Below are positions 11,976 to 53,845 of a stretch of DNA of 64,000 bases, piece by piece. The notes below the pieces were generated by a model. That model saw only the letters and a program-made list of their open reading frames with translations, ran no database searches and had not been told where the DNA came from. The DNA comes from Thermoplasmatales archaeon (GTDB taxonomy: Archaea; Thermoplasmatota; E2; UBA202; JdFR-43), in contig JACIWA010000003.1 in NCBI GenBank assembly GCA_014361195.1, forward strand, positions 43,681 through 107,680, read 5' to 3'. Numbering within the stretch: position 1 is the first letter of the stretch; each line of letters starts with the position of its first letter. The position numbers and the translations under genes were made by a program.

Positions 11976-12389
11976 ATGAATGAAGAAGAGCTTAGGAGAA
12001 ATATATATTTATTGCAGAGGCATCAGGAAGAGATTGAGAATACATATGCCCAAATTGAAGTTATTGAAAAAATGATAAATGAGTATAGGAGGACAATTGA
12101 GACACTTCAGGAGATTGCATCTACTGAAGGAGAGAAGGAAATTCTAATGCCATTGGGTGGGAATGTTTTTGCTTACACCAGTTTAAAGGATACAAAGAAA
12201 GTTATAATAAGTATAGGGGATAAAGTATTTATAGAGAAAACAACAAATGGGGCAATTGATTTTTTGAATAAAAAGATAGAGGAATTGATGAGAAGTGAAG
12301 AAAAATTGATAGCCCTTGTTGATGAATTAAGCCAGAGAATGGAGGAAATTTCAAAGAAAATAAAGAAAGAAGATGTTTCAGTTTCTTAA
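11976..12389 (+). CDS. pfdA: Prefoldin alpha subunit
   Basis: 137 aa coiled-coil/beta-hairpin/coiled-coil layout; conserved position before ftsY. Confidence 0.75.
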   Translation: MNEEELRRNIYLLQRHQEEIENTYAQIEVIEKMINEYRRTIETLQEIASTEGEKEILMPLGGNVFAYTSLKDTKKVIISIGDKVFIEKTTNGAIDFLNKKIEELMRSEEKLIALVDELSQRMEEISKKIKKEDVSVS

Positions 12390-38496: not shown

Positions 38497-41400
38497 TTAT
38501 TTTCTTCTTCTCAGCAAGAAAATCGCTGCAAACATTGCAATTGCAATGCCTATCATTTCAAAGCCTGGTGTCTTTGGCCCAGCTTTCACTTCAACTGTCT
38601 TTGTTGCTTTGTAATAGCCATCCTTCTCCGCAACTATTGTTATAGTTCCTTCCTTGTCTGGTGTGAATTTTATCTCACCATTTGCATCTGTTGTAAATGT
38701 CTTTCCATCTATTGTTACTTTTGCATTTGCAACTGGTTTTCCACCTCTTGTTGTAACTGTTATCCTTGCTTCCTTTCCTTTTTCAAGCTCAGGAGCAATT
38801 ATCTTCAATCCAATTGCCACATCTATGCTTCCTGCATCATCGTCCTCTACAACTATCTGTATCTTTCCTGTTTCGAGTGGAACAATTCCAAACAGTAACT
38901 TTCCATTTGAATCTGTTTCTCCAACATCTATTGCTCCCATTGGAGTGATTATTCTAACATTTAATCCTTTTAATCCCGCATTTGTTAATGGGTGTTTGAC
39001 AAGAATTGTTATCAGATTTTCCTCTGCAAGGAATGCAACTTTTTCTGCGGGTTCAATTATTTCAACTGTTGGAGTTGTTATTCTAAGCATTCCATTCGCC
39101 TCCGCAAATTCGCTTCCATCAGCGGATGGTTTAAATTCGAAGGTTATGTTGCCTATTGCAGTTGCATTTACTTCGCTGACATTTCCTATTCCATTTGTTA
39201 TTGTTATTTCAATTGTATCATTTACCCATGTAACATTTTGGGCATTAATTCCTTTTATGCGCAGTGTTCCATTGAATGCCTTTTCTTCCCATGTAACGCT
39301 GAATGATACTGTTACATTTTTATCTACATTCTTTACAAGCAAGCTCGGGCTTGCGGTAACTGTTGCTTTTGTTACTTCAAAGCTTGGCTCATTTTCCATG
39401 TTATCATGCTTTTTGTCAGCAGTTCTTACATATAGATAATATTTCCCAGCTTCTTCTATATGATATTTGAATGTTGAATTTGCACTGCTTGTTGTATGCA
39501 CTGGAGAAGGCAATGTAAATGTGCCTTCATGCAGTTTTTGCAATTCTGTTTCATTTAATATAAAGAATTCAAAGTTATCTGAATAAGCTTGTCCTCCTTT
39601 TGTTATATTAACTGTAAATTCAGTATTTTCTCCCGCAAGAACTTTTGATGGGGTAATTGTTACATTTAGGTCATGTGCAGCTCTTGATTCAATTCTTGCA
39701 TATGCATATTGGGTTCCTACTCCAACTATATAATCTACAACAACTATTATATTCTTTCCAGCATGTTTTGAAGTAATTGTGAAATTGTATTTTCCATTCA
39801 AGCCTTTTCCAGGTGAGCCATCTCCTGATATTGTTGCATTTTCAACAGCGTCACCCAAAAAATAGAGATTTTCTTCATAATACATACTTACATTTGCATT
39901 TGCAATTGGATTTCCATATCTATCTTTTACCTCTACTTCAATATTTGTTGGTGTATCAACCACTATTGCTTTTGGTGTAACTGTTACAACTCCTCCATCA
40001 CTTATATTTATTGTTTCTTTTGCGGTTCCTTTTTCAGGCCATGTAACATTTATGTAAATGATTCCGTTTCCTTTTGTTGGGAATACGTAAATTTCCCATG
40101 TTCCATTTCCTAAATGATTATATGCATTTTCTGGTGGAGAATAAATTACATCTCCTTCTATTTTAATTCTATCTGTCACATTTTCATTATTTGCTCCTAT
40201 ATTTAATGCATCTGGAGTGCCATATGTTGTCATATTGCTTCCAAATATCTGAATTCTTAAAAGCTGTTTATTTGCAGCAGGTGCCAAAACATTCATTATT
40301 TTATCCAATGGCTGTAAAACCTTTATATTTACCGCTGGCGCTGAAGGGATGCTGAAATCTTTCTCGCCAACATATTCCCAATTTCCATCTCCAGTTACAT
40401 CAACATCAACTTTGAGTATATAATTTCCCGCCTCCCACATCAGTGATGTTAGATTTAGGAATTTTCCATCTATATTAAAAACAATATTTGTTTGATTGCT
40501 TGTTCCTGTATTATTTCTCCATGCATACAACTCTCCACCTTTATAAACGGATATGTTATAATTGTTCCCTGGCAATAATTGCAAACCATCTTCTGGATAT
40601 GTTATTTCAAAGCTTACTTTTCCTATATCAAATCCACCTATTGCATTATTAACTAATAAACTTATATTTGGTGCAACTGTTTTAACATTTACAATATCAT
40701 AACCAAATGCATCTGGATATTGCTCATCTCCAATATATGCAGTAACATTATATTTACCCGCTCCTTTCTGCCCTATATTTCTATCAATGAATGAAAACCT
40801 TCCATCGCTTGTAACATTTTGAGTTTCATTGCTTCCATCTGGATAAATTAATTTAATTTTTGCCTGCGTCGCTGGCTGGCCAGCCATTGTGACTGTTCCT
40901 TCAATGTTTATGTAGCATCCTGGTTTGCCAACTTTTATATAATTCACTTCATCAGGAGTGGCATTTACAACAAGTTCAACTGGCTTAACATCTATTGCAA
41001 ATGCATTTGCCTTGTTATCATTTACCTTGTCAACTATCCACCATTTTCCACTTATATTGAGTAATACGTTTGACCATCTTACATAGCCCGGTCCCTGTGC
41101 AGTAAATCTTGGCTCTGTTTCACGTGGAGCATATAAATAGACTGTTCCTTCTGCATTATTTATTTCAATTGTCTTTGTTTCATTCCAATTTGCAGTTGTT
41201 GGAGTAACTTGCAGTGTGGTCAAATTTGCAATTGGAATATAATCGGTATTAACATCTTCTTCATTCCCTTCATTGTCTATGCTGTAATATTCTATTTTAT
41301 GCTTCCCTGGTGTGCTCAATGTAAATGGTGCGGTATAAGTTATCCAATTTCCTTCATTTATTCTATAATATGTTGCATTTACCCCGCTCTCGTCATCTTG

Positions 41401-41583
41401 TGCAGTAAGTGTTACTGTTACATTTGTTACATACCATCCCCAGACTGGCAATTGTGGCTCAACAGATATTGTTGTCACTGGTGGAGTGGTATCTTGTGCC
41501 AAGACTGGCAAAGCGCTCGCTAATATTGCAACTACCACAACCAAACTTCCTATTTTTCTAATATTTCTTCTATTCATTTTCAT
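38497..41583 (-). CDS. Large secreted surface (S-layer-like) glycoprotein with PGF-CTERM archaeosortase sorting signal
   Basis: Signal peptide MKMNRRNIRKIGSLVVVVAILASALPVLAQ with a purine-rich GGGGGA just upstream (the ORF extends to 41652 but the internal Met is preferred); many N-x-S/T sequons; Ig-like/CarboxypepD-reg-like beta repeats; C-terminus PGFEMIGIAIAMFAAIFLLRRRK = PGF motif + TM + basic tail. Confidence 0.8.
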   Translation of the reverse strand: MKMNRRNIRKIGSLVVVVAILASALPVLAQDTTPPVTTISVEPQLPVWGWYVTNVTVTLTAQDDESGVNATYYRINEGNWITYTAPFTLSTPGKHKIEYYSIDNEGNEEDVNTDYIPIANLTTLQVTPTTANWNETKTIEINNAEGTVYLYAPRETEPRFTAQGPGYVRWSNVLLNISGKWWIVDKVNDNKANAFAIDVKPVELVVNATPDEVNYIKVGKPGCYINIEGTVTMAGQPATQAKIKLIYPDGSNETQNVTSDGRFSFIDRNIGQKGAGKYNVTAYIGDEQYPDAFGYDIVNVKTVAPNISLLVNNAIGGFDIGKVSFEITYPEDGLQLLPGNNYNISVYKGGELYAWRNNTGTSNQTNIVFNIDGKFLNLTSLMWEAGNYILKVDVDVTGDGNWEYVGEKDFSIPSAPAVNIKVLQPLDKIMNVLAPAANKQLLRIQIFGSNMTTYGTPDALNIGANNENVTDRIKIEGDVIYSPPENAYNHLGNGTWEIYVFPTKGNGIIYINVTWPEKGTAKETINISDGGVVTVTPKAIVVDTPTNIEVEVKDRYGNPIANANVSMYYEENLYFLGDAVENATISGDGSPGKGLNGKYNFTITSKHAGKNIIVVVDYIVGVGTQYAYARIESRAAHDLNVTITPSKVLAGENTEFTVNITKGGQAYSDNFEFFILNETELQKLHEGTFTLPSPVHTTSSANSTFKYHIEEAGKYYLYVRTADKKHDNMENEPSFEVTKATVTASPSLLVKNVDKNVTVSFSVTWEEKAFNGTLRIKGINAQNVTWVNDTIEITITNGIGNVSEVNATAIGNITFEFKPSADGSEFAEANGMLRITTPTVEIIEPAEKVAFLAEENLITILVKHPLTNAGLKGLNVRIITPMGAIDVGETDSNGKLLFGIVPLETGKIQIVVEDDDAGSIDVAIGLKIIAPELEKGKEARITVTTRGGKPVANAKVTIDGKTFTTDANGEIKFTPDKEGTITIVAEKDGYYKATKTVEVKAGPKTPGFEMIGIAIAMFAAIFLLRRRK

Positions 41584-41760
41584 TCCCCCTTCGATTTTCT
41601 TTCTAAAATGCTTTTCCTTTTTTAACTTTTTCTCTTTTTCCATTTTAAACAAGTAGAATTCAATTCCTTTTTATAAAGATTTTGCTTTTTACAATACTCT
41701 GGCTAACACAAAAAGCTTATATTTAGATTTGTTTTAACATTTTGTTAGCAAAATGATAAT

Positions 41761-42165
41761 ATGAGTAAGCCAATTGGAGTAAGAGTTGATGAAAAGCAGG
41801 AAGAGGTATGGCTTAAATTCAAGGAGTTTGTAGAAGGAAAATACGGAAAAAAACATACTGTTTTAGGAAATGAGCTTGTAAAGGCTTTACAGCTATATTT
41901 AGAGTTATATGAGAAAATAAATTATAAGAAAGAGCCACAAACACATCTTATAAGGGAGAGGAGAGGAGATATAGAGCTCATGCCTCTTAGAGAAATATCT
42001 TATGATTTGCTAAATACATTGATAGCATGTCGTGGATACTTAGAGCATATAGAAGATGAACTGGAAAATATTCCAGATAGCGCCAGGGAAAAAATAGATA
42101 AGATAAGGCAATCCCTTTTCAAAATGCAAAAAATTATTCAAGATAGAATAGAGACAATTAAATGA
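41761..42165 (+). CDS. Hypothetical protein with possible N-terminal ribbon-helix-helix fold
   Basis: 134 aa; N-terminus IGVRVDEKQEEVWLKFKEFVE resembles strand-helix-helix of CopG/Arc-type regulators; weak. Confidence 0.4.
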   Translation: MSKPIGVRVDEKQEEVWLKFKEFVEGKYGKKHTVLGNELVKALQLYLELYEKINYKKEPQTHLIRERRGDIELMPLREISYDLLNTLIACRGYLEHIEDELENIPDSAREKIDKIRQSLFKMQKIIQDRIETIK

Positions 42166-43220
42166 AGAAAATAGGTTTTATAATAAATCCAATTGCTGGA
42201 ATGGGAGGGAAAGTAGGATTGAAGGGCACAGATGGAAAACTTGAAGAGGCAATCAGAAGAGGGGCAAAACCTGTCGCAATAGAAAGAGCTCTCGAATTTT
42301 TATCAAGCACAAAAAAAGATTATGAATTTATCACATGCTCATCTGAAATGGGGGAAAATGCTCTCTTAAGGGGTCAAAAAAAATTCAAAGTTGTTTATGA
42401 AGCAGGGGAAAAAACAACCGCGGAAGACACAAAAAGAGGAGCAAAAATAATCTCCAAGGAGGCAGAGATAATAGTTTTTGTGGGTGGAGACGGCACCGCA
42501 AGGGATATTTTTGAGGCTATCGACGCCAAATTGCCGATACTTGGGGTGCCATCAGGAGTGAAGATGTATTCGGGTGTGTTTGCAATGACTCCAGGTGATG
42601 CGGGTAAGATAGTTGATGAAATTGATGAGCTGGGGTTTGAGGAGAGGGAAATATTTGATATAGATGAAGATGTGCTCAAGGAAGATAAGATAATAACAAG
42701 AATAGTGGGTTATGCAATTGTTCCTCGCCATGAAAAAGTTCAATGCGGTAAAGAAGTTTATTATGGAAATGGAAAAGAGGAGATTGCTTCTTGGTTTATT
42801 GAAGAAATGGAAAGAGATGTTTTATATATAATAGGAGGAGGATCCACAACTTGGGAAATAAAAAAGAGGATTGGAGGAGGATCTTTTCTTGGCATAGATT
42901 TAGCAAAAAATGGAAAAATTATTTTTAAAGATGCGAGTGAAGAGGATATAAAAAAATTTTTGAAAGGGAAGGCAAAAATTGTTGTATCTCCTATGGGGGG
43001 ACAGGGATTTATTTTTGGAAGGGGTAATCAGCCAATAAGTGCGGAAATAATAAGAAATGTGGGCAAGGAAAATATAATAGTTGTTTCAACAAAAGAAAAA
43101 TTGGATAGAATAGATTCCTTAAAAGTGGATACTGGAAGCGAGGAGGTAAATGAAATTCTTCATGGCTTCATCTCAGTTTATACAGGATATAAGGAAAGAA
43201 AAATAATGAAGGTGGTATAA
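42162..43220 (+). CDS. ATP-NAD kinase / diacylglycerol-kinase-like family protein (COG3199-type)
   Basis: 352 aa; GGDGT motif (IIVFVGGDGTARD) and second glycine-rich segment IIGGGST. Confidence 0.65.
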   Translation: MKKIGFIINPIAGMGGKVGLKGTDGKLEEAIRRGAKPVAIERALEFLSSTKKDYEFITCSSEMGENALLRGQKKFKVVYEAGEKTTAEDTKRGAKIISKEAEIIVFVGGDGTARDIFEAIDAKLPILGVPSGVKMYSGVFAMTPGDAGKIVDEIDELGFEEREIFDIDEDVLKEDKIITRIVGYAIVPRHEKVQCGKEVYYGNGKEEIASWFIEEMERDVLYIIGGGSTTWEIKKRIGGGSFLGIDLAKNGKIIFKDASEEDIKKFLKGKAKIVVSPMGGQGFIFGRGNQPISAEIIRNVGKENIIVVSTKEKLDRIDSLKVDTGSEEVNEILHGFISVYTGYKERKIMKVV

Positions 43221-43621
43221 TGTTAATAGCAGAAAGAGATAAAATAATTGAAATTTTAAAAAATGCAAGGAACATTGCAATAGTCGGGATATCAAAAGAT
43301 GAGGGAAGAGCAAGTTATCAAATTGCAAAAAAACTTGGCAAATATAATCTATTTTTTGTGAACCCAAAATATGCAAATGAAGAAATTCTTGGAAGAAAAG
43401 TTTATTCTTCCCTTAAAGAGATAAAAGATAAAATAGACATAGTAGATGTTTTCAGAAATAAACTATATGCGGAAGAAGTAATAAAAGAGGCAATTGAGGC
43501 AAGGGCAAAAGTTGTGTGGTTTCAACCCGGCTCCGAAAATTTGGAGATAATAGAAAAATACAGGGATGAGATAGATATTATATTCAATGCGTGTATTGGA
43601 GTTATAAACGGTTTTATATAA
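43220..43621 (+). CDS. CoA-binding domain protein (YccU-like)
   Basis: 133 aa Rossmann-like; NIAIVGIS...VDVF...VWFQPG pattern of CoA_binding_2. Confidence 0.7.
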   Translation: MLIAERDKIIEILKNARNIAIVGISKDEGRASYQIAKKLGKYNLFFVNPKYANEEILGRKVYSSLKEIKDKIDIVDVFRNKLYAEEVIKEAIEARAKVVWFQPGSENLEIIEKYRDEIDIIFNACIGVINGFI

Positions 43622-43637
43622 TAAAAGATTTACTATC

Positions 43638-44594
43638 ATGCAAGCATTCTCGCTCCTTAATTCATTTCCCGAGCAAATAAAGGATGCATTGAAAATAGCA
43701 AGCTCTTATAATTTCTCATTTTCTGCTGATAAAATAATTTTTTGTGGGATGGGTGGCTCAGGAATAAGCGGGGAGATATTAAAAAATTTCTCAAATGTCC
43801 CTTTTATTGCTGTTAAAGATTATAATCTCCCATATTTTGCAGACTCTTCTACTCTTTTAATTGCAATGAGTTACAGTGGAAATACATCGGAAGTAATTTC
43901 ATGCTATAAAGAAGCAAAGAAGAAAGGTTGTAAAATTCTTGCGGTAACATCAGGTGGCATACTTTCAAAAGAGAAAAATTCAATAATTTTGCCCGCAGGC
44001 ATGCCCCCAAGATTTGCAATTGCATATCTTCTTTTTACACTTGCATTAACTCTTGAAAATAACGGGCTTATCAAAAAGCAAGATTACGAAGAAATAATAA
44101 CAGTTACTGAAATTATCAGAGATAGAATGAAAGAGAAGGGCAATATTGCGGAAGAAATTGCAAAAAAAATAAAAGGAATTCCATTGATATATGGATATGC
44201 GGAAATGGCGAGCATAGCAAAAAGATGGAGGCAACAATTAAATGAAAATGCAAAAATGCTTGCATTTGATTTTCAAGTAAGCGAATGCAATCATAATGAA
44301 ATCGAGGCTTGGGAAAGAGATTTAAAAAATTTAACATGCATTTTTTTAAGAGGAAATGAAAATGAGGAAGTTAAAAAAAGATTTGATTTCATGAAAAGAA
44401 AATATGGAGAAAAAGCAATAATTATTGAATATTTTGCGGAAGGTAAAAGTTTGTTTGCAAAAATGATATCTTCTCTTTATATAGGCGATTATGTGAGCTT
44501 ATATAAAGCAAATTTGGATGGTTTTGATCCAATAGAAACAAAATTGATAAAAGAGTTGAAGAAAGAGCTGGCAAGCAAAACTCCGCAAAAATAA
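43638..44594 (+). CDS. Bifunctional phosphoglucose/phosphomannose isomerase (archaeal SIS-domain PGI/PMI)
   Basis: 318 aa; SIS motifs CGMGGSGISG and SYSGNTSE. Confidence 0.75.
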   Translation: MQAFSLLNSFPEQIKDALKIASSYNFSFSADKIIFCGMGGSGISGEILKNFSNVPFIAVKDYNLPYFADSSTLLIAMSYSGNTSEVISCYKEAKKKGCKILAVTSGGILSKEKNSIILPAGMPPRFAIAYLLFTLALTLENNGLIKKQDYEEIITVTEIIRDRMKEKGNIAEEIAKKIKGIPLIYGYAEMASIAKRWRQQLNENAKMLAFDFQVSECNHNEIEAWERDLKNLTCIFLRGNENEEVKKRFDFMKRKYGEKAIIIEYFAEGKSLFAKMISSLYIGDYVSLYKANLDGFDPIETKLIKELKKELASKTPQK

Positions 44595-44615: not shown

Positions 44616-45575
44616 TTGGGGATAAAAATGGAAGAAATGTACGATGTTATAGTTGTTGGAGGTGGGCCTGCTGGTTTGACAACTGCTATCATGTGTGCAA
44701 GCAGGATGCTTAAAACGCTTGTGCTTGAAAGTGGGAAATGGGGTGGATTGCCCGCTACTCTATACCCGAGTAAAGTGATACCAAATTATCCAGGATTTCC
44801 GGAAGGTATAACCGGAATTGAACTTGTGAGGAAATGGATAAAGCAAGCAAGGGAGAGCAAATATATTACAATGGTCAGGGAAAGAGTTATTAAAATAGAG
44901 AAAGGAGGTGTTGTTAAAACAGAGGAAAATGAATATCATGGAAAGACAATTGTTATAGCAACTGGAACACGCCCGCAGGAGCTTGGCATAGAAGGAGAGA
45001 GTAAATTCAATAAAGGAGACAAAGGGGTTTATTACTATGTTACCCATAGAGAGGATTTCATAGGGAGTAAAGTTCTTGTTGTGGGAGGGGGAGATACTGC
45101 GGTTGATGCATCACTTGATTTAGTTGACCTTGCTGAAGAAATAACAATAATTCACAGGAGAGATAGATTCAGGGCTTTAGATGAAAATGTGAAGAAGATG
45201 GAGGAAAGCAAGATAAATATAATGCTAAATACAGAGCTTGAAGAAATAAGAGGAAAGGATAAAGTTGAGGAAGCCATTCTTTTCAACAACAAAACAGGAG
45301 AAAGAAAGACATTGAAAGTAGATAAAATAGTTCTTGCGGTTGGTCTAAAACCAAATACAGAAATGTTTGAAGAACTTGGAATAAAAACAGATGAAAAAGG
45401 ATATATAATAACCGATCACATGCAGCGCACAAATGTTGAAGGAGTTTTTGCGGTGGGAGATATCGTGAGGGGGGCATTCCGCCTTCTCATTGTTGGCGCA
45501 GCCCACGGAGCAATAGCATCCCAAAAGATATATGAATATGTAAGGAAGCCATATTGGGCGGGAGAAATCAGCTGA
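44616..45575 (+). CDS. Thioredoxin-reductase-like FAD/NAD(P)-binding oxidoreductase (no redox-active CxxC seen)
   Basis: 319 aa; FAD GxGxxG (VIVVGGGPAG), NAD(P) GxGxxA (VLVVGGGDTAVD), C-terminal FAVGDI; the CATC-type disulfide of true TrxR is absent. Confidence 0.7.
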   Translation: MGIKMEEMYDVIVVGGGPAGLTTAIMCASRMLKTLVLESGKWGGLPATLYPSKVIPNYPGFPEGITGIELVRKWIKQARESKYITMVRERVIKIEKGGVVKTEENEYHGKTIVIATGTRPQELGIEGESKFNKGDKGVYYYVTHREDFIGSKVLVVGGGDTAVDASLDLVDLAEEITIIHRRDRFRALDENVKKMEESKINIMLNTELEEIRGKDKVEEAILFNNKTGERKTLKVDKIVLAVGLKPNTEMFEELGIKTDEKGYIITDHMQRTNVEGVFAVGDIVRGAFRLLIVGAAHGAIASQKIYEYVRKPYWAGEIS

Positions 45576-48500
45576 ACATCCTTCTAATCCTCTTATAATA
45601 AGGTAATTCAGAGTACTTGAAATCTATCTTGAAATCTACCCCAATATCTGCGTCGCAAATTTCTATTCCTTTTTCCAAAATTCTCTCTTTCAATTCTTCA
45701 AAATATTTATTTTTTTCAAAATTTAAAAAGCATATTTTCTTCAATTTTTCTGCATTAAAATCCATGATTATTCCCAAATCAAGTATATCCTCAACTTCAA
45801 AAGGAGTAAAAAATTCGTGATTGAATTTTATTTCTGGGTCAATTTCTATTGATTTTGCAAATATTTCAATTTCTTTCTCTTTTTCTTCATAATCAATAGC
45901 ATTTTTAATGCATTCATTTCCACATATTCCGCAACCCAGACAAGCTCTGCATGCCAAGCATCTATTTGCTTCACTAACAGCGGTTTTTTTATCAAAACCT
46001 TTCTCAACTTCCTTAAATGTGCTTATCCTTTCATCAATGCTTATCTCCTCAATATTTTTTCTCTTTTCTTTTCCAAAAATTGATAAAACAACATTTCTTT
46101 TCATGATATCAACGTCTTCATAACTTGCTATCATTCTATTTATATCTCTTTCAACAGGATCAAAATCTATTTTTTTGCCATGTAAATAGGCATCTATTGC
46201 CTTTGCAACTCTTCTTCCCCATGCAACCGCTTCTATTACTATAGATGGGCCACTCACCGCATCTCCTCCCGCAAAAACTCCCGGCAGAGATGTTGTTCCA
46301 GTATTTTCATCAACATAAATCAATCCATCCTTCTTTATTTCATCTGGCAGAAATGATAGATCAGGTTGCTGACCAATTGCAGAAATAACAACATCCGCCT
46401 CAATGAAAAACTCACTGCCTTTCTTTGGAACAGGTTTTCTTCTCCCACTTTCATCTGGCTCTCCTAGCTCCATCTTCACACATTCAATTTTCTCAACGCT
46501 TTCTTTTCCAACAATTTTTAAAGGAGCGGTTAGGAAAAGAAAATTCACTCCCTCTTCTTCTGCATATCTTATTTCTTCCTCGCGAGCGGGCATTTCCTGC
46601 CTGCTCCTTCTATATAAAATTGTCACATCGCATCCAAATCTTATTGCACACCTTGCAGCATCTATTGCAACATCTCCTCCACCTATAACAACAACTTTCT
46701 TCCCTGAAATAATTGCCCTTACATTTTCTGGATATATATTTACTTCTCTTAAGAAATCAACTCCAGGTATAACTCCTTTTAAATTTTCCCCTTCTATACC
46801 CATCTTTCTGCTCTTATGAGCTCCTACTCCAATAAATATTGCATCAAAATTCTTCCTGATCTCTTCAAAAGATATATCCTTTCCTATCCTACAATTCAAC
46901 TGTATCTCAACACCCATTTCAAGAATTGCATTTATTTCTCTATTCAGCACATCTTTTGGAAGCCTATAGGGAGGAATGCCAACCGCGAGCATTCCCCCTG
47001 CAACAGGTAGTGCTTCAAAAATTTTAACTTTATACCCCATTCTTGCAAGTTCATATGCAACAGTTAAACCCGCTGGGCCTGAGCCAATTACCGCAATCTT
47101 ATATTTACTATTTTCATTTACTGGCATTTTTCCGAGATCAATTTTTCCCTTATTTTCCCACTCCCAATCCGCAACAAATCTCTTCAATAACCTTATTGAA
47201 ATTGCCCCATCAATTCCATTTCTCCTGCAAATTTCCTCACAGGGATGAGGACACACCCTTCCAAGCACACCTGGCAAAGGAAGGCGCTCTCTTATTAAAT
47301 TTATTGCCCCTTCAAAATCTCCTTCCGCAATTCTCGCCACATATCCTCGAACATCAACATGTGCAGGGCAATTAGTTTGGCAGAAAGGGCTCTCCTTCTC
47401 AAGGAAAAATGTGCTTGGTGCGCCATTTCTTCCATAAATTGCTTTCCTTGAAAAAATAGTTTGCTCCCTATCAACTGTCCTTACAGGGCATATTTCATAG
47501 CATATATTGCAGTTGTTGCAGTTTTCATTAACTCTTGTAGGATATTTTATTATTTTTACAACCCCATCCCTTATGCTTTTTACAATTGAATTGTTTGCAA
47601 TAAATATTTTTCCTTCCTTTACTAAGGCCAGAAACTCGTCATATTTGCAATCATCGTTTAAAGAGGAGAGGTGCTTCCTTATGGTATATTTATTTATTGA
47701 TGGATATTTCTCAACAATAACAACATTTTCTCCATTTTTTGATAATTCAATCGCCTTGTTTATGCCATATGCTCCTCCTCCTATTATCACATGTGCCTTC
47801 TTCAATTCGCTTATATCTTTTGTTTCGCTTATATCTAATGAAAAATCTTTTTCCTCTTTTTTTATTTCATTTTCTAATAAAAATACATATTTTCCATTTT
47901 CCTCTCTGAAAGATAATTCCCCATTTTTTATCATATCAAGCAAATATAAATATAGAATTTTTTTATCAATAAACTTCGATATTTCATCAAATCCTTTTCC
48001 TTCATTGATTAAAAATTTTATTGTTTCTATATTCATCTCATCTCTTAAAATTTCATCGCCTATTCTGTCAAACTCATAATTTGTATAAATTTCATCATAT
48101 TTATTTCCAAGGAATGTGAGCATTCTGTGCTTTCCCGCAATAATTCTTGCTCTTGGTTTAATTGAAACATTGTATGCAACTTTAAGAAGGGTATCATCTT
48201 TCAACTCCTCTTTCAATGGCCCGAGCTTTTCAATTTCTCTTGAAAATTCATCAACAATCCTTGCAAATTTTTCTCCCTCAGAAGCAGAAATCCATTCCAG
48301 CCTTAAGCGAGATGGATTAACCCCCGCAAATTTAAGTAGCTTTTTTGCAACATAAATCTTCCCTATTGTATAATAATTTCCAGTGACATAATGGCAGTCT
48401 CCAAGATGACAACCTCCAACAAGAACACCATCAACACCTTTTAGAAATGCTTTAATAATGAAAAATGGCTCAACCCTGGTTGAGCACATAACGCGAACAA

Positions 48501-48594
48501 CTCTTATTGTAGGAGGATATTGATATCTGCTCACTCCCGCCAGATCCGCGCCCGCATAACTGCACCAGTTGCAGAGTAGGCCAAGTATTTTCAA
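45568..48594 (-). CDS. Multidomain oxidoreductase: N-terminal MvhD (hydrogenase delta-subunit) domain fused to a GltD/NfnB/SudA-like FAD-NAD(P)H-FeS oxidoreductase
   Basis: 1008 aa; MvhD signature LCNWCSYAGADLAG...CSTR...GGCHLGDCHY at the N-terminus; GltD-type FeS region (FCQTNCP...GRVCPHPCEEIC) followed by KIAVIGSGPAGL and VVVIGGGDVAIDAAR nucleotide-binding motifs; C-terminal CLACRACLGCGIC cluster. Confidence 0.8.
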   Translation of the reverse strand: MKILGLLCNWCSYAGADLAGVSRYQYPPTIRVVRVMCSTRVEPFFIIKAFLKGVDGVLVGGCHLGDCHYVTGNYYTIGKIYVAKKLLKFAGVNPSRLRLEWISASEGEKFARIVDEFSREIEKLGPLKEELKDDTLLKVAYNVSIKPRARIIAGKHRMLTFLGNKYDEIYTNYEFDRIGDEILRDEMNIETIKFLINEGKGFDEISKFIDKKILYLYLLDMIKNGELSFREENGKYVFLLENEIKKEEKDFSLDISETKDISELKKAHVIIGGGAYGINKAIELSKNGENVVIVEKYPSINKYTIRKHLSSLNDDCKYDEFLALVKEGKIFIANNSIVKSIRDGVVKIIKYPTRVNENCNNCNICYEICPVRTVDREQTIFSRKAIYGRNGAPSTFFLEKESPFCQTNCPAHVDVRGYVARIAEGDFEGAINLIRERLPLPGVLGRVCPHPCEEICRRNGIDGAISIRLLKRFVADWEWENKGKIDLGKMPVNENSKYKIAVIGSGPAGLTVAYELARMGYKVKIFEALPVAGGMLAVGIPPYRLPKDVLNREINAILEMGVEIQLNCRIGKDISFEEIRKNFDAIFIGVGAHKSRKMGIEGENLKGVIPGVDFLREVNIYPENVRAIISGKKVVVIGGGDVAIDAARCAIRFGCDVTILYRRSRQEMPAREEEIRYAEEEGVNFLFLTAPLKIVGKESVEKIECVKMELGEPDESGRRKPVPKKGSEFFIEADVVISAIGQQPDLSFLPDEIKKDGLIYVDENTGTTSLPGVFAGGDAVSGPSIVIEAVAWGRRVAKAIDAYLHGKKIDFDPVERDINRMIASYEDVDIMKRNVVLSIFGKEKRKNIEEISIDERISTFKEVEKGFDKKTAVSEANRCLACRACLGCGICGNECIKNAIDYEEKEKEIEIFAKSIEIDPEIKFNHEFFTPFEVEDILDLGIIMDFNAEKLKKICFLNFEKNKYFEELKERILEKGIEICDADIGVDFKIDFKYSELPYYKRIRRMFS

Positions 48595-50264
48595 TCTATC
48601 ACCTCTATTTCCGCAACTATTTGCTCATCTCTGAAATGCTTCATATCAATTGCTTTATGTATGCAGGATGAAGAGCATGCCCCGCATCCCTTACAAGCAG
48701 CGGGTATATTTTCAGCAACTTTCTTACCATTTTTTTCAACAATTATCATTGCTCCATATGGACAAACTTCAACACACATTCCACAGCCCATGCATTTATT
48801 TTCATCAATATATGGCGTATATGGCTCAACTTTCACAAAACCATTTAACATAGGAATGGATGCCCTTCCAGCAGCTGCAAGAGCTTGAATTTTTGCTTCC
48901 TCAATTGTTGCGGGCGCCCTGCAGGAACCACACATGTAAATTCCATCTGTTGCAAAATCAACAGGGCGCAACTTTACATGGGCCTCAAAGAAAAAGCCAT
49001 CTAAACCAAGAGGAACTTTTAGCATTTGGGATATTTTTTTAGCGTCTTCGCTTTCTACAAGAGGAGTGGAAAGAATAACCAGATCCGCAGGCAATTCAAT
49101 TTTTCTCCTGAGCCCTGGATGATACAATCCAACAAATATTTTGCCATCTTTTCTTTCAATTGATGAAACTGTTGGAATGCTATCACTAACTCTTATGAAC
49201 CTAACACCTTCTTCTCTTGCCTTCCTCACATATTCTTCATATTTTACTCCATAACTCTGCAAACCCTTATGAATTATATATACATTTGAATCAGGAATCA
49301 TTTTCTTAATTATCCTTGCATTTTTCACCGAGTTCATACAGCATATCCTTGAGCAATACCTTACTCTTTCCCCTCTCCCTCCAACACATTGTATAAAAAC
49401 AAAATCATTTCCTTTTAATTTATTCTCCTTAAGCATTTTTTCAAGCTCAATCTGGGTTATTATATTTTCATATTCCTGATAATTATACATATATGTTGGC
49501 TGATATGGCTTTGCTCCAATTGCAACAATTATTGTTCCTACCTTTATTTCCTTATTTATTTTCCCTCTTATTAGCACGTTGAAATTTCCTATATAGCCAT
49601 CAATTTTTTCAACCTTGCTTGATAAATATATATTTATGTTCCTGTACTTTTTAACTTCCTCAACAGCATCTTTTAGCACTTTGCTCGCTTCTTCATCTTC
49701 TGGATATACCTTATATATATAATTCAATATTCCCCCGAGTCTATCCTCTTTTTCAACTAAATGCACCTCAATTCCCTGCTTTGCAAGGGCAACAGCAGAA
49801 GTTAATCCAGAAATGCCTCCCCCTATAATAAGGCAGGATTTTTCAACAGGTATTTTTATTTCTTCTAATGGCTCTAATAAGCGGGCTTTTGCAACTCCCA
49901 TTCTTATTAAATCCTTTGCTTTTTCTGTTGCCTTCTCCCTTTCCTTTTGATGAACCCATGAGCATTGGTCGCGAATATTAACAAATTCAAATAAAAATTT
50001 ATTCAACCCAGCCATCTCACAAGCTTTTCTGAAAAGTGGCTCATGCGTTCTTGGCGTGCAGGATGCAACAACAACCCTGTCAAGCTTATATTCCTTTATT
50101 GCATTAATTATTTCCTGCAGACCTGCATTGGAGCATGTGTACATATTTTCCTTTACATAAACCACGTCTGGCAAGCTCTTTGCATACTCACACACCACTG
50201 GTACATCTAAAAAGCCCGCTATATTTGTACCGCAATCACAAACAAAAACCCCTATTCTAGGCAT
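48591..50264 (-). CDS. Heterodisulfide reductase subunit A-like flavoprotein (HdrA/QmoB-like, with C-terminal 2x[4Fe-4S] ferredoxin domain)
   Basis: Start taken at MPRIGVFVCDCGTNIAG (8-nt overlap ATGCCTAG with the upstream gene); FAD motif IIGGGISGL; HdrA Cys signature CVGGRGERVRYCSRICC; CMGCGMCVEVCP and CKGCGACSSSC ferredoxin motifs. Confidence 0.8.
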   Translation of the reverse strand: MPRIGVFVCDCGTNIAGFLDVPVVCEYAKSLPDVVYVKENMYTCSNAGLQEIINAIKEYKLDRVVVASCTPRTHEPLFRKACEMAGLNKFLFEFVNIRDQCSWVHQKEREKATEKAKDLIRMGVAKARLLEPLEEIKIPVEKSCLIIGGGISGLTSAVALAKQGIEVHLVEKEDRLGGILNYIYKVYPEDEEASKVLKDAVEEVKKYRNINIYLSSKVEKIDGYIGNFNVLIRGKINKEIKVGTIIVAIGAKPYQPTYMYNYQEYENIITQIELEKMLKENKLKGNDFVFIQCVGGRGERVRYCSRICCMNSVKNARIIKKMIPDSNVYIIHKGLQSYGVKYEEYVRKAREEGVRFIRVSDSIPTVSSIERKDGKIFVGLYHPGLRRKIELPADLVILSTPLVESEDAKKISQMLKVPLGLDGFFFEAHVKLRPVDFATDGIYMCGSCRAPATIEEAKIQALAAAGRASIPMLNGFVKVEPYTPYIDENKCMGCGMCVEVCPYGAMIIVEKNGKKVAENIPAACKGCGACSSSCIHKAIDMKHFRDEQIVAEIEVID

Positions 50265-51531
50265 TGCACCACTCCCCCGCCCTGCATGCGGCAGCGCTTG
50301 CCTGATAAACACTTTCTGTTATATCTTTAGGGGCACAGCAACAACCTGCTGCATATATTCCTTTCCTTGTTGTTTCAACACCATTTGTTTTAATGAACCC
50401 ATGTTCATCAAGCTCTATTCCAAGGATTTTTGAAATTTCTGAATTGGTATCTGATGGCATTATAGGGGTTGCAAGAATAACCATTTCTACTTCAAGCTCT
50501 TTCACCTTCCCCTCATTTTCATCTTCATAATATATTATCAAATTTTTAGTATTTTTATCCTCAATTATTTCTCCTGGACGAGCATGTATATATGTAATTT
50601 TATAATCCTTCTCCCCTCTTTTGCTATACTCATAAAATCTTTTGCTAAAGATTCTTAAATCTGAATAAAATATGAAGGACTCAATATCATTATAATGCTC
50701 ATTTGCTAGCATTGCACTTTTTATAGATACCATACAGCAAACAGAAGAGCACCATCTGCATCTTCTAACATCTCTTGAGCCTACACATTGAATAAATGCA
50801 ATCTTTTTAGGTCTTCTTCCATCAGGAGCACATTTCAAATGTCCATGAGTTGGACCAGATGCGTTTATAAGCCTTTCATATTCAATCCAAGTATGAACAT
50901 TTGCAAATTTTCCATAGCCATATTCTTTTATATCATATGGCTCATATGCTTTTAAACCCGTAGCAACAATTATTGAAGCAACTTCAATTTCAATTGTTTT
51001 ATCTTCCTGACTATAATCTATTGCTTTTGCCTTGCATATTTTCTGACATAGCCCGCACCTATTCTTAGTTAATTTCAGGCAATATCTCTTATCAATTGTT
51101 GCTTTCCTTGGAACCGCTTGAGGAAATGGAAGAAAAATTGCCTTTCTTTTATCGATATAGTTATTATATTCATTTGGCACTTCTGTAGGACATTTTTCCA
51201 TGCAATCACCGCATCCAGTGCATTTGCTAGCATCAACATATTTTGCCCTCCTCTTCACTTTAACCTTAAAATTTCCCGCATTTCCATTAAGCCCAACAAC
51301 TTCAGAATATTCAAGTATCTCTATATTTGGATGAGATGCACATTCATTCATTTTAGGAGCAAGAATGCATATACTGCAGTCATTTGTTGACATTGTCTTA
51401 TCTAACAAAGCCATCCTCCCACCGATGCTGGGCTCCTTTTCAACTAAATAAACATGTATACCTCTATCCGCTAAATCAAGCGCCGCCTGAATGCCCGCAA
51501 CCCCTCCGCCAATAACAAGCACGCTTTTCAT
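50257..51531 (-). CDS. Heterodisulfide reductase subunit A-like flavoprotein (HdrA/QmoA-like)
   Basis: 424 aa; FAD motif VIGGGVAGIQAALDLA, DCSICILAPK, HdrA Cys signature CVGSRDVRRCRWCSSVCC, one ferredoxin-type CTGCGDCMEKCP motif. Confidence 0.8.
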   Translation of the reverse strand: MKSVLVIGGGVAGIQAALDLADRGIHVYLVEKEPSIGGRMALLDKTMSTNDCSICILAPKMNECASHPNIEILEYSEVVGLNGNAGNFKVKVKRRAKYVDASKCTGCGDCMEKCPTEVPNEYNNYIDKRKAIFLPFPQAVPRKATIDKRYCLKLTKNRCGLCQKICKAKAIDYSQEDKTIEIEVASIIVATGLKAYEPYDIKEYGYGKFANVHTWIEYERLINASGPTHGHLKCAPDGRRPKKIAFIQCVGSRDVRRCRWCSSVCCMVSIKSAMLANEHYNDIESFIFYSDLRIFSKRFYEYSKRGEKDYKITYIHARPGEIIEDKNTKNLIIYYEDENEGKVKELEVEMVILATPIMPSDTNSEISKILGIELDEHGFIKTNGVETTRKGIYAAGCCCAPKDITESVYQASAAACRAGEWCNA

Positions 51532-52586
51532 ATTGCTTCTCCAATTGCTTCAACAAAATCCTTTACTTCGAGCTCATAATTTTCATGACTCATGGTACAT
51601 AGGAAATGAATTTTGCATTTGGGACAGGTTGTTATTAGCATTTTTGATTGCTGTTCCGCTTCTAAAAGCCTTTCTTTCCTTATTTGCTCCGCCTTCCAAT
51701 CACAGGCCATCCATGCGGAAGTGGAACAACAAATTGCTTTCTCTTTTGAATGGGACATTTCTTTTATTTCATATCCCGCATTCCTTAATGCTTCTCTTGG
51801 CTCTTCATAAATTCCTAGATGGCGACCTAATCTACAGGAATCATGGAATGTGCACTCTTTATTTAAATTTCCCTCAATTTTGCTATTTTTAAGGAATTCA
51901 GAAATATGCATCATTTCAATGCCAGCTTTGTAATCATATTTAAAAGTTCTATAGCATTCAGGGCAGGAGAATATTATTTTTTCAAAATTTTTTATTTTTT
52001 CCATGTTCTTTTTCTTCATCTTTTCAAAAATCTCATTATTTCCATTCCATAATGCGTCATGCCCACAGCATGAAAATAAAACAGCGGGAGCAATGTCAAA
52101 ATAATTCAAAATTTTTATTGTGTTTTCTGCAATTGAAATTCCACTGAATCCGATATTTTCAAAAAATACATCATACAATGGCAGACAGCCAGCAAAATAA
52201 AGAATTTTTGATTTTTCATCTATTTCTACATTTTTTATGCTAAAATTTAAATCATTTTTTTCAAATAGAATGGGCAATTTTCCAAAAATATTTTCATGAG
52301 CTGGAATTCCAAAATTTTTATTTTCCATTGCAATCTCTCTCACTTTTCTTATAAAAGATAAAAAATCAACACCAGATGGACATATTTCCTCACAAATTCC
52401 ACATGTCAAACATTTCCATATATCATTTGAATAAACCAATTCATCTTCTATACCTATAAGAGATCTTTCAACAATGCTTGCAGGAGAGAATTTGCCATAA
52501 ACTCTTGTAACAGGGCATGCGGAGCTACATTTCCTGCATTCAACACAATAGTATGCCTTACTCTCATTTACTATCTCTTTAATCAT
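51528..52586 (-). CDS. HdrC/HdrB-like fusion protein (2x[4Fe-4S] ferredoxin domain + CCG cysteine-rich domains)
   Basis: Two CxxCxxCxxxCP motifs (CVECRKCSSACP, CLTCGICEEICP) followed by CCG-domain-like Cys patterns (FAGC, SCCGHD, HDSCRLGRH, CCSTS); start placed at MIKEIV (8-nt overlap with the upstream ferredoxin); a longer start at 52637 is possible. Confidence 0.7.
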   Translation of the reverse strand: MIKEIVNESKAYYCVECRKCSSACPVTRVYGKFSPASIVERSLIGIEDELVYSNDIWKCLTCGICEEICPSGVDFLSFIRKVREIAMENKNFGIPAHENIFGKLPILFEKNDLNFSIKNVEIDEKSKILYFAGCLPLYDVFFENIGFSGISIAENTIKILNYFDIAPAVLFSCCGHDALWNGNNEIFEKMKKKNMEKIKNFEKIIFSCPECYRTFKYDYKAGIEMMHISEFLKNSKIEGNLNKECTFHDSCRLGRHLGIYEEPREALRNAGYEIKEMSHSKEKAICCSTSAWMACDWKAEQIRKERLLEAEQQSKMLITTCPKCKIHFLCTMSHENYELEVKDFVEAIGEAI

Positions 52587-53049
52587 TTTTAACACCAAAT
52601 AAATGGATAATTTTTGAAAATTTTTTGAATTTTTCACTATCTGAAATCTTATCAGAAAAAATGCATTTCCTAACCTCTATTTTTTTCCCCTCATATAACT
52701 TTTCAATTGCAATTCCGATATCAAATCTTCTCTCGCAAAAAATTACTGAATTTTCCTTCTCAATAAATTCATACAAGCATTTTTCACATTCAAATTCATT
52801 TACTTCAATTTTTTCAGATAAATAAAAAAATGATTCATCTTGTATGTGATATATGGCGGAAGATGGACATGAAGCAACACATACACCACAACCCTTGCAT
52901 GAAATATCATTAACCGAGACAATTTTTTTCTCTTTATCATATGAGAAGCAATCGCATATTGATAAACATATTCTGCATTTTGAGCATTTTTCTTGATCTA
53001 TTGAGACTGGAAATTGTTTATAAAGGAGCATCGCTGAAATAATTCGCAT
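52579..53049 (-). CDS. 4Fe-4S ferredoxin-domain protein
   Basis: 156 aa; CSKCRICLSIC and CKGCGVCVASCP cluster motifs plus additional Cys pairs. Confidence 0.6.
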   Translation of the reverse strand: MRIISAMLLYKQFPVSIDQEKCSKCRICLSICDCFSYDKEKKIVSVNDISCKGCGVCVASCPSSAIYHIQDESFFYLSEKIEVNEFECEKCLYEFIEKENSVIFCERRFDIGIAIEKLYEGKKIEVRKCIFSDKISDSEKFKKFSKIIHLFGVKND

Positions 53050-53074: not shown

Positions 53075-53845
53075 TTAAATAGCATGCTTATATTTAGCAT
53101 ACTCAAAAACTGGCCCATCAATACATGAATAATAACTTCCAACAATACAATGCCCACATTTACCTATTCCACATTTCATTCTTCTCTCAACCGATAGATA
53201 GATTTTTTCTTCATTTGCTCCCCTTTTTATAGCTCTTTCTATAACTGGTTTAAACATTGCGGGAGGGCCACATATCAGAATATATTCATTTCCATCAAAG
53301 ACTATTTCATCCAATAGCTCAGTCACAAACCCTCTTCTTGCTCCTTCTTTTTCAAAAATTTCATATACTTCAGCATGTCTCTTCCATTCCTCAATTTCTT
53401 CCTGAAATAGCATATCTCGCCTGCTTCTTGCCCCAAAAAGAATTCTCAACTGATTATAAATTTTTGAATGAATTGCTTCCTTTATAAAACTTCTTAAAGG
53501 TAATATACCGAGGCCTCCAATTATTGCAACAATATCTTTTCCTTTCAATTTTTCCATCGGAAAACCATTTCCAAAAGGTCCTCTATAAAAGATATATTCA
53601 ATTTTATCTAAATTGTAAAGAAAGGAGGTTGCTCTTCCAACATTTCTTACACAAATTTCAAAAAAATTTTTTTCATATGGAGGAGAACATATTGAGATGG
53701 GAAATTCTCCAATTCCAGCAAGAGATATTTCAACAAATTGCCCAGGAATAAAATTAAAATTTTCCGCTTCAATCCTTAAAAATTTTTTATCATCTATCTT
53801 CTTATTTTCTATTACCCTCCCTTTTACTGGCATGAATGGGTTCAT
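53075..53845 (-). CDS. NfnA/PyrK/sulfhydrogenase-gamma-like FAD-NAD(P)H oxidoreductase subunit with C-terminal [2Fe-2S] motif
   Basis: 256 aa ferredoxin-reductase fold (VAIIGGLGILP, ICGPPAM) and C-terminal CGIGKCGHC...C cluster. Confidence 0.75.
   Translation of the reverse strand: MNPFMPVKGRVIENKKIDDKKFLRIEAENFNFIPGQFVEISLAGIGEFPISICSPPYEKNFFEICVRNVGRATSFLYNLDKIEYIFYRGPFGNGFPMEKLKGKDIVAIIGGLGILPLRSFIKEAIHSKIYNQLRILFGARSRRDMLFQEEIEEWKRHAEVYEIFEKEGARRGFVTELLDEIVFDGNEYILICGPPAMFKPVIERAIKRGANEEKIYLSVERRMKCGIGKCGHCIVGSYYSCIDGPVFEYAKYKHAI

Follow-up and report, generated by a model that had tools for sequence, protein, structure and literature searches.

An MvhD adaptor fused to a GltD-type flavoprotein module within a truncated HdrA-like fold: a candidate NAD(P)H entry subunit for HdrA in a Thermoplasmatales archaeon

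The stretch of DNA analysed here (the window) comprises 64,000 nucleotides of a Thermoplasmatales archaeon (GenBank assembly GCA_014361195.1, contig JACIWA010000003.1, positions 43,681 to 107,680 of the forward strand); positions below are those of the window unless a locus is named. Its minus strand carries an open reading frame (ORF) of 1008 codons, from 48594 to 45568, identical to GenBank MBC7081187.1, where it is recorded as 'MAG: hydrogenase iron-sulfur subunit [Thermoplasmatales archaeon]'. On balance, we read the product as the NAD(P)H electron-entry subunit, probably with NADPH as the nucleotide, of a soluble HdrA-based complex for flavin-based electron bifurcation. The protein would have two parts: an extended MvhD adaptor (amino acids (aa) 1-~245) with one predicted [2Fe-2S] cluster, and a degenerate paralogue of HdrL/type III HdrA (aa ~260-1008) in which the HdrA flavin domain would be reduced to a scaffold. 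A non-bifurcating GltD module of the Stn/NfnABC type, with one flavin adenine dinucleotide (FAD) and two [4Fe-4S] clusters, would sit inside the 2x[4Fe-4S] ferredoxin domain of that paralogue.

The reading frame is sound. No stop or change of frame interrupts its 3027 nt, GC content is flat over the region, and the TTG start is preceded by the ribosome-binding motif GAGGTG and overlaps the stop of the upstream HdrA gene by 4 nt. Eighteen collinear full-length homologues (997-1055 aa, 43-88% identity) come from independent assemblies at NCBI, JGI, ENA, and Logan; they belong to Thermoplasmatota and, at ~44% identity, to Halobacteriota. Loci L001, L002/L003, and L004 have one uninterrupted ORF as in the window. 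The AlphaFold2 model of the full-length chain has a mean predicted local distance difference test score (pLDDT) of 89.6 and a predicted template-modelling score (pTM) of 0.90, is confident through all junctions, and forms a single body. The initial annotation, which described an MvhD domain at the N-terminus of a GltD/NfnB-like oxidoreductase, had named the joining of a separate mvhD gene to a GltD-like gene by frameshift or mis-assembly as an outcome that would undo it, and had proposed domain annotation and structure prediction as checks. Such an artefact can be discounted for practical purposes: the unbroken frame, the even GC content, the orthologues with the same single ORF in at least 18 independent assemblies, and the confidence of the model across the junctions all contradict it, and inspection of the ORF, GC content, orthologues, and model yielded no point in its favour. 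Domain annotation bears the description out, Pfam placing FlpD, Fer4_20, and Pyr_redox_2 in the one chain.

The Pfam FlpD model (PF02662) matches aa 3-125 over its full length (profile 1-123/123; E 1.9e-49, 167.2 bits against a cut-off of 22.3), and the solved MvhD chain 5odc_D aligns to aa 2-131 (E 7e-50), covering the motifs CNWCSYAGADLAG and GGCHLGDCHY. Cysteines C8, C11, C37, C62, and C67 match those of solved MvhD and are invariant in the 18 full-length homologues. The N-terminal MvhD and its ligand cysteines are thereby confirmed as first described; by these alignments the domain appears complete and is predicted to bind a [2Fe-2S] cluster. The accompanying premise that MvhD occurs only as a stand-alone subunit or at a C-terminus is incomplete, as other N-terminal MvhD fusions exist with [FeFe]-hydrogenase, HdrC/B-like CCG proteins, and ferredoxins; MvhD thus acts as an all-purpose adaptor, joined to donor or acceptor modules of many kinds. 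The model for HdrA2-type HdrA-MvhD fusions, NF040770, matches in its MvhD part only (profile 649-776 against aa 2-129; 232 bits, cut-off 1100), and the protein would not be classed as an HdrA2-type fusion, its MvhD not being C-terminal to a complete HdrA. The expected association with HdrA is seen in gene order: the gene adjoins one for an HdrA with a C-terminal ferredoxin domain in the window and likewise at L001, L002, and L085. Within the extension behind MvhD, a motif GNKYDEIYTNYEFDRI (aa 160-178; 48061-48117), in which N164, Y166, E168, T171, and E174 are invariant in the family, was considered as a relative of the HdrA motif YGYGxYxNVxTxxEFERL; hhalign gives the pairing a probability of 2%, the likeness is probably due to chance, and it was dropped.

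Downstream of MvhD lies the GltD/NfnB-type NAD(P)H:FeS flavoprotein module that the initial annotation had recognized, although it takes up about half of the protein (403-~895) and not the C-terminal two-thirds. It has Fer4_20 (aa 402-482) and two Rossmann folds (Pyr_redox_2, aa 498-791) with a GxGxxG for FAD and a GxGxxA with YRR for NADPH, as in GltD, NfnB, and domain II of DPD, and Fer4_7/Fer4_9 match aa 884-911. The NCBIfam model PRK12771 (GltD-like subfamily) covers aa 400-910 with 514.8 bits, just under its cut-off of 516. PDB matches include 9n5u_A (1.5e-140), 8oh5_C (2.7e-113), and 4ylf_B (2.9e-105), alignments to 9n5u_A, 9bov_A, and 8oh5_C extend to aa 888-918, and identity to the solved StnC and NfnABC NfnA chains is 41-47%. 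A Foldseek search of the PDB with the whole AlphaFold2 model returns GltD-type matches only (E 1e-50 to 1e-39) and does not inform the HdrA-like part. The motifs GSGPAG, GGGDVA, YRRS, and GGD are invariant in both sets of homologues (18 and 119), and the pattern of GSGPAG with GGGDVA/YRRS and GGD is typical of NADPH-dependent GltD/NfnB/DPD enzymes. Fer4_20 is split around the Rossmann folds, profile positions 28-111 corresponding to aa 402-482 (47149-47391) and positions 1-33 to aa 856-888 (45931-46029). The first ~30 profile positions, with RCxxC, thus come after both Rossmann folds, as in StnC/NfnABC and HdrL, which looks like a circular permutation relative to NfnB/GltD. The cysteine-rich stretch that follows (aa 879-905) would round off the set of GltD clusters and at the same time contribute the second half of the inserted ferredoxin domain.

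The type of GltD module is indicated by K471, which occupies the non-cysteine ligand position of the FAD-proximal cluster and is invariant in the 119 homologues. In alignments its counterparts are K170 of StnC and the lysines of NfnABC, while the bifurcating NfnB proteins of Thermotoga and Pyrococcus have Glu (4ylf_B, 5jca_L); the motif CPHPCExxCRR and the C-terminal extension with RCxxC are also of the StnC/NfnABC type (8oh5_C, 9n5u_A, 9bov_A). The GltD-type domain of StnC has been shown experimentally to be non-bifurcating, its NADPH electrons passing via Fe-S clusters to a separate bifurcating module (PMC10482914). Given the StnC-type lysine, the module in the window reads as a plain port for the entry or exit of NADPH electrons; the comparison points to an NADPH entry site that would not itself bifurcate. 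An NfnB-type bifurcating module was considered and is unlikely, since K471 replaces the Glu ligand of NfnB.

The region between MvhD and the GltD module has a different origin from that first proposed. By hhalign, aa 266-402 match residues 2-150 of HdrA424, a 424-aa HdrA encoded in the same cluster (probability 99.8%, E 2.4e-29); they comprise an FAD-type GxGxxG fold together with the CxxCxxCxxxCP motif that comes first in the inserted ferredoxin domain. For aa 897-958 the match is to HdrA424 residues 168-248 (98.4%, E 6.7e-15). The NCBIfam model hdrA_Methbact matches aa 235-402 with its positions 107-286. Both segments thus represent halves of one HdrA fold, which places the GltD insertion within the ferredoxin domain of that fold. 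Segment-wise BLAST with the 119 homologues also places the intervening region in ~1136-aa deltaproteobacterial and ~1648-aa Asgard proteins, in which it is the start of an HdrA unit, and the interrupted HdrA arrangement is found in more than 100 HdrL-type homologues. Fifteen cysteines (C359/362/365/369, C405/409/448/452/456, and C879/882/885/888/891/895) are at least 90% conserved in the 119 homologues and would suffice for four [4Fe-4S] clusters.

Taken by itself, the order of the Pfam domains would suit a direct fusion of an independent MvhD with a GltD/NfnB-like oxidoreductase, with a dinucleotide-binding/ferredoxin-like spacer between them, as the initial annotation had proposed. That account was rejected as highly improbable, since the spacer and the tail are HdrA halves around GltD and the same interruption recurs so widely in HdrL-type proteins. 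The GxGxxG and subsequent CxxCxxCxxxCP do lie at aa 266-371 as described, but they are not a linker; the supposed insert and the last ~110 residues belong to the same truncated HdrA paralogue.

The HdrA-like fold is truncated. Homology to HdrA ends at residue 248 of the 424 in HdrA424, with only ~50 residues remaining. Neither the CCM [4Fe-4S] motif nor the C-terminal FAD-binding half was found in the tail (aa 906-1008) by hhalign and alignments, and the alignment of the 18 full-length homologues, among which this region is poorly conserved, contains no conserved tail cysteine. The complete HdrA flavin domain that characterizes HdrL and type III HdrA (FAD-binding half, CCM motif, and K409 region) is therefore missing. 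All six of the MvhD-first relatives tested (~23 found) have the HdrA-like fold truncated, while in the HdrL, Asgard, and Anaerolineae proteins compared, whose MvhD is either encoded separately or placed at the C-terminus, it is complete; HdrL and the Asgard proteins align to HdrA424 residue ~408-415. The protein is best filed, from its sequence, as a putative derived and degenerate offshoot of the HdrL/type III HdrA family fused to MvhD.

Six closely spaced minus-strand genes, some of them overlapping, form a cluster that ends with the gene for the fusion (Table 1). Alignments to 5odc_A bear out the earlier statement that two HdrA-like genes lie next to it. HdrA557 has the N-terminal, flavin, and C-terminal ferredoxin domains and is without the inserted ferredoxin domain and Cys197, reading 'PEDEEAS' at the HdrA site 'PTNDCSIC', and HdrA424 keeps the Cys197 motif TNDCSIC; the domain losses of the two are complementary. 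Losses of this kind have been interpreted by Chadwick et al. as the mark of an obligate heterodimer (PMC9012536), and those in the window match the pattern proposed for HdrA of anaerobic methanotrophic archaea (ANME) and of Moorella. In the translated HdrCB-like protein the CxxCxxCxxxCP motif occurs twice, as does the CCG motif, both copies of the latter being intact. Pfam and NCBIfam searches revealed neither a hydrogenase nor a formate dehydrogenase gene in the six-gene cluster. The block ferredoxin-HdrCB-HdrA-HdrA-fusion is kept in L001 and L085, whose orthologues of the fusion are 63% and 65% identical, respectively. A Halobacteriota metagenome-assembled genome has a 998-aa double HdrA directly 5' of the homologue, and at L084 a 502-aa HdrA precedes a 1737-aa fusion.

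The remaining member of the cluster, a 256-aa flavoprotein, gives it a second pyridine-nucleotide site. Its gene heads the cluster in the window and in L001 (cluster head L001 3668-4939); L085 lacks it, showing instead a 615-nt gap with no called gene, and has the ferredoxin at L085 4482-4952. Together with the GltD module, this PyrK/NfnA-like subunit could be imagined as an NfnAB-like bifurcating unit, splitting NADPH electrons to NAD+ and to a low-potential Fe-S chain leading through MvhD to HdrA, so that two bifurcating flavins would act in series. Two such sites have been proposed for the HdrA-NfnB fusions of ANME (PMC9012536), a PyrK/NfnA-type gene does open the cluster in the window and L001, and the GltD module is 45% identical to Thermotoga maritima NfnB. 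A second bifurcation site is nevertheless very unlikely: the lysine at 471 is that of StnC/NfnABC and not the NfnB glutamate, CPHPCExxCRR is also of the Stn type (PMC10482914), the 256-aa protein is far nearer to sulfhydrogenase gamma (9nez_C, 5e-55) than to NfnA (4ylf_A, 1e-13), and its gene is not part of the L085 cluster.

If the GltD module is a plain entry site, electrons would pass from NADPH to the GltD FAD, through the two GltD [4Fe-4S] clusters and the two of the ferredoxin domain to the MvhD [2Fe-2S] cluster, and from there to the C-terminal ferredoxin domain of HdrA557, which corresponds to the docking site of MvhD in solved complexes (PMC9012536, PMC5861303). They would then reach the bifurcating FAD of the HdrA557/HdrA424 heterodimer, with HdrCB (some disulfide) and the inserted ferredoxin domain of HdrA424 (ferredoxin) as the presumed outputs, and the whole path could run in reverse. 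The GltD module would stand where the MvhAG hydrogenase stands in MvhADG-HdrABC. The initial annotation had suggested that the fusion couples NAD(P)H to the adjacent HdrA-like proteins, and this is consistent with the domain content and the adjacent HdrA genes, with StnC as a precedent (PMC10482914). A remnant without a reachable flavin of its own would have to use MvhD, and truncation would then be expected to go with fusion behind MvhD; the co-occurrence of flavin-half loss and MvhD fusion fits such a rerouting. Fusions of the order HdrA-MvhD-remnant (P0122) would also fit contact between MvhD and the preceding HdrA.

Several points weigh against this scheme. The step from the ferredoxin-domain clusters to MvhD is its weak link, and nowhere is the AlphaFold2 model less confident than in the MvhD cluster loops (pLDDT 46-56). 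NADPH-driven reduction of ferredoxin and a disulfide is thermodynamically marginal. With GxGxxG and E295 retained, binding of a nucleotide by the remnant is still conceivable. The scheme does not account for the role of the second NAD(P)H-binding module in the window and L001 (the 256-aa HydG/FlxA-like protein with the ferredoxin), and none of the relatives comes from a cultured organism. In HdrL and type III HdrA, moreover, the GltD-bearing ferredoxin domain is on the ferredoxin branch and not on the MvhD side (PMC12054007), so homology alone predicts another wiring.

Such a wiring would have the remnant, with its GltD-bearing ferredoxin domain, dock in trans on HdrA557 and join NAD(P)(H) to the 'ferredoxin' branch. 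The MvhD domain would then serve another partner, for example the 256-aa protein with the 156-aa ferredoxin, and the fusion would provide assembly and stoichiometry and no internal wire. HdrA557 is without exactly the inserted ferredoxin domain, and in HdrL, ANME-1 HdrA9-11, and the Moorella protein that domain carries GltD at its tip, presumably in place of ferredoxin (PMC12054007, PMC9012536, PMC9430772). The cluster itself encodes an NAD(P)H module resembling Flx, and in FlxABCD-HdrABC the MvhD-like FlxD joins such a module to HdrA (PMC4759654). We regard docking in trans as possible but unlikely: the heterodimer has a single N-terminal cluster site, for which HdrA424 already brings Cys197 along with an inserted ferredoxin domain that is intact, the Cys197 equivalent of the remnant is not conserved, L085 keeps the rest of the cluster in the absence of the HydG/FlxA-like gene, and truncation of the remnant coincides with fusion behind MvhD in the members tested.

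The preferred reading, entry of NADPH electrons through MvhD, can be extended to a more speculative one, which we consider rather doubtful: a hitherto undescribed six-subunit Hdr machine of non-methanogenic Thermoplasmatota with two pyridine-nucleotide sites, one HdrA bifurcating core, and an HdrCB disulfide reductase. If it were true, the sites would be one of Stn type for NADPH in the MvhD fusion and one of HydG/FlxA type for NAD(P)H, and the machine would work either as a transhydrogenase built on Hdr or as a ferredoxin/thiol reductase driven by NADPH. The flavin-less truncated HdrA would then be a new kind of Fe-S scaffold, rerouting a ferredoxin-branch module to the MvhD port.

The arrangement is rare. 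A HMMER search with aa 1-400 against 1.84 billion cluster representatives gave one match with the N-terminal part arranged in the same way (P0002, 772 bits), the next scoring 250 bits. Fusions of HdrA, MvhD, the extension, GltD, and a truncated HdrA occur in P0122 (1737 aa), P0124, and P0126, and P0131 from Chloroflexota is a partial MvhD-...-GltD protein. Among the matches listed for GTDB species genomes (80 loci), MvhD precedes GltD in one ORF in at least one (L004) and the opposite order is found in at least four. No published account of an MvhD-first arrangement with truncated HdrA was found in the literature searched.

Four classes of enzymes are known to carry out flavin-based electron bifurcation, and the HdrA complexes make up one of them. 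As to how donors other than H2, formate, and F420H2 plug into HdrA, the only evidence to our knowledge comes from gene neighbourhoods and from the Moorella MetFV-Hdr complex, which is poorly resolved. In the protein described here a single chain holds the donor module, the presumed wire, and MvhD as adaptor, and its AlphaFold model is confident. This makes it a convenient subject for studies of the connection between NAD(P)H and HdrA and a useful, compact model of this plug-in, while the principle itself is no surprise. It also shows that an HdrA paralogue can lose its flavin half and yet persist as an Fe-S scaffold, and it points to bifurcation linked to NAD(P)H among Thermoplasmatota that are still uncultured. 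Its name in the database, 'hydrogenase iron-sulfur subunit', misleads.

Table 1. Features of the fusion protein and genes of its cluster, in window positions.
Feature	Residues (aa)	Positions	Strand	Basis
MvhD/FlpD domain, predicted [2Fe-2S] site (Cys8, 11, 37, 62, 67)	1-130	48205..48594	-	Pfam, 5odc_D
Helical extension ending winged-helix-like (~aa 190-242), then low-confidence acidic linker	131-258	47821..48204	-	
HdrA-type thioredoxin-reductase-like domain, N-terminal part (GxGxxG G272/G274/G277, E295)	259-350	47545..47820	-	hhalign, NCBIfam
HdrA 'inserted ferredoxin' domain, first half (C359, C362, C365, C369-P)	351-402	47389..47544	-	hhalign
GltD/NfnB/StnC-like flavoprotein, two [4Fe-4S] ligand sets (C405, C409, C448, C452, C456, K471)	403-810	46165..47388	-	Pfam, PDB matches
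GltD-module FAD site GSGPAG; NADPH site GGGDVA...YRRS	403-810	46165..47388	-	predicted
GltD C-terminal extension, common to StnC/NfnABC and HdrL	811-878	45961..46164	-	alignments, Fer4_20
Cys-rich stretch C879, C882, C885, C888, C891, C895	879-905	45880..45960	-	conservation, Fer4_7/Fer4_9, hhalign
Truncated, degenerate end of HdrA thioredoxin-reductase-like fold	906-1008	45571..45879	-	hhalign
FAD/NAD(P)-binding [2Fe-2S] protein, 256 aa (sulfhydrogenase gamma/PyrK/NfnA/FlxA-like)		53075..53845	-	Pfam NAD_binding_1, DHODB_Fe-S_bind
Ferredoxin, 156 aa, two [4Fe-4S] motifs		52579..53049	-	Pfam Fer4_10/Fer4_7
Fused HdrC/HdrB-like protein		51528..52637 (probable start Met18, nt 52586)	-	Pfam CCG x2, Fer4_8; 5odc_C 1e-12
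HdrA424 (424 aa): thioredoxin-reductase-like + inserted ferredoxin domain only		50257..51531	-	5odc_A 146-562, E 1.8e-136
HdrA557 (557 aa from ATG 50264; ORF from 50312)		48591..50264	-	5odc_A 4-237 + 318-647, E 5e-146

Beyond the 3' end of the fusion gene, and overlapping it by 8 nt, a convergent plus-strand gene (44616-45575) encodes a 319-aa flavoprotein of the thioredoxin reductase fold with one cysteine and without a CxxC redox motif; thioredoxin reductases and ferredoxin-NADP reductases of the thioredoxin reductase type match it about equally (E 1e-44 to 1e-51). L001 has the same convergent neighbour (12111-13067). An FrhB/FdhB-like Fe-S protein, F420- or flavin-binding, lies beside the homologue at L001 (13234-14301), L085 (12049-13116), and L002 (1290-2738); its place in the window is taken by genes for a PGI-like SIS-domain protein (43638-44594) and NAD kinase (42162-43220) and by a small ORF (43220-43621). 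Farther along, a minus-strand gene (38497-41652) encodes a secreted surface protein of 1051 aa with an N-terminal signal-like segment and a C-terminal tail '...GPKTPGFEMIGIAIAMFAAIFLLRRRK', which we take to resemble the PGF-CTERM archaeosortase sorting signal. On the other side, a minus-strand gene for a HerA/DUF87-type ATPase (53869-55104) ends 23 nt upstream of the first Hdr-cluster gene and is divergent from that for a T2SSE-type secretion ATPase (55140-57236, plus strand), with no obvious tie to the Hdr genes; the upstream neighbour of the cluster in L001 is a PIN-domain gene on the other strand. The remaining genes of the window are ordinary archaeal housekeeping genes, such as those for PolD DP2, CDC48, aIF5B, XPD, and tRNA synthetases.

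The MvhD domain is 59-66% identical over 125-130 residues to MvhD of MvhADG-HdrABC (PDB 5ODC, 7BKB, 8RVU), keeping all of the conserved cysteines, and as in that system the gene lies beside one for an HdrA with a C-terminal ferredoxin domain. The solved MvhD chains, however, are stand-alone proteins of 129-141 aa that bridge [NiFe]-hydrogenase or formate dehydrogenase to HdrA, whereas this MvhD continues into an extension of ~115 aa, helical and winged-helix in fold, and shares one polypeptide with an NADPH module. The best solved matches of the GltD module are StnC of Sporomusa ovata StnABC (8OH5) and NfnA of NfnABC (9N5U, 9BOV), with E values of 1e-113 to 1e-140 and, by Foldseek, of ~1e-48 to 1e-50; the C-terminal extension, CPHPCExxCRR, and the proximal-cluster lysine are common to all. 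The GltD domain of Stn/NfnABC sits in a NuoG/HydA-like subunit and feeds a NuoF-type flavin mononucleotide module, whereas that of the fusion sits in an HdrA-type ferredoxin domain and would feed the HdrA FAD. NfnB of NfnAB (4YLF, 5JCA) has ~45% identity to the module with the same fold and cofactor motifs, but it is a stand-alone bifurcating subunit with Glu at the K471 position and another spacing of the second cysteine motif.

Among whole systems, FlxABCD-HdrABC of Desulfovibrio is alike in concept, combining an NAD(P)H dehydrogenase, Fe-S proteins, and an MvhD-like adaptor with HdrABC (Ramos et al. 2015, as cited in PMC4759654 and PMC5861303). By Pfam composition the window is also like Flx in encoding an FlxA-like FAD/NAD(P)/[2Fe-2S] protein and a small ferredoxin, but a GltD module is not part of Flx, and its FlxD is a small protein on its own. 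The HdrA of Moorella MetFV-HdrCBA-MvhD and the ~1648-aa HdrA(GltD)-HdrA-MvhD fusions of Asgard archaea and Anaerolineae have three building blocks in common with the system described here: an HdrA unit with GltD inserted, an HdrA unit without the inserted ferredoxin domain, and MvhD (PMC9430772). The Moorella MetFV-HdrABC-MvhD complex oxidises NADH (PMC5861303), and the N-terminal half of its HdrA carries the GltD insertion (PMC9430772). The order there is GltD-HdrA, HdrA, MvhD, as against HdrA424 / HdrA557 / MvhD-GltD-HdrA remnant in the window, which has a third, flavin-less HdrA-like unit besides two complete ones and is without MetFV genes.

The closest likeness is to HdrL and type III HdrA. 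A GltD-type insertion in the inserted ferredoxin domain of HdrA was described for HdrL of Desulfobacterium autotrophicum (PMC2702500), and the same architecture for ANME-1 HdrA9-11, with an NfnB-like insertion (PMC9012536), and for type III HdrA (PMC12054007), so that in these proteins from ANME-1 and Bathyarchaeota the NAD(P)H flavoprotein module is placed as in the fusion. They have the same cysteine pattern (C359...C369, C405...C456, C879...C895), K471 is invariant, the GltD modules are 47-55% identical, and their genes are genomically associated with MvhD. HdrL and type III HdrA, however, keep the whole HdrA flavin domain and usually the N- and C-terminal Fe-S domains, with MvhD as a separate downstream gene, whereas the fusion begins with MvhD and retains a flavin domain only in shortened, degenerate form. 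The combination of GltD, HdrA, and MvhD is thus not new; what is new is the order of genes and domains and the degenerate HdrA part, and the protein is a rare rearrangement of HdrL/type III HdrA parts and not a new kind of enzyme.

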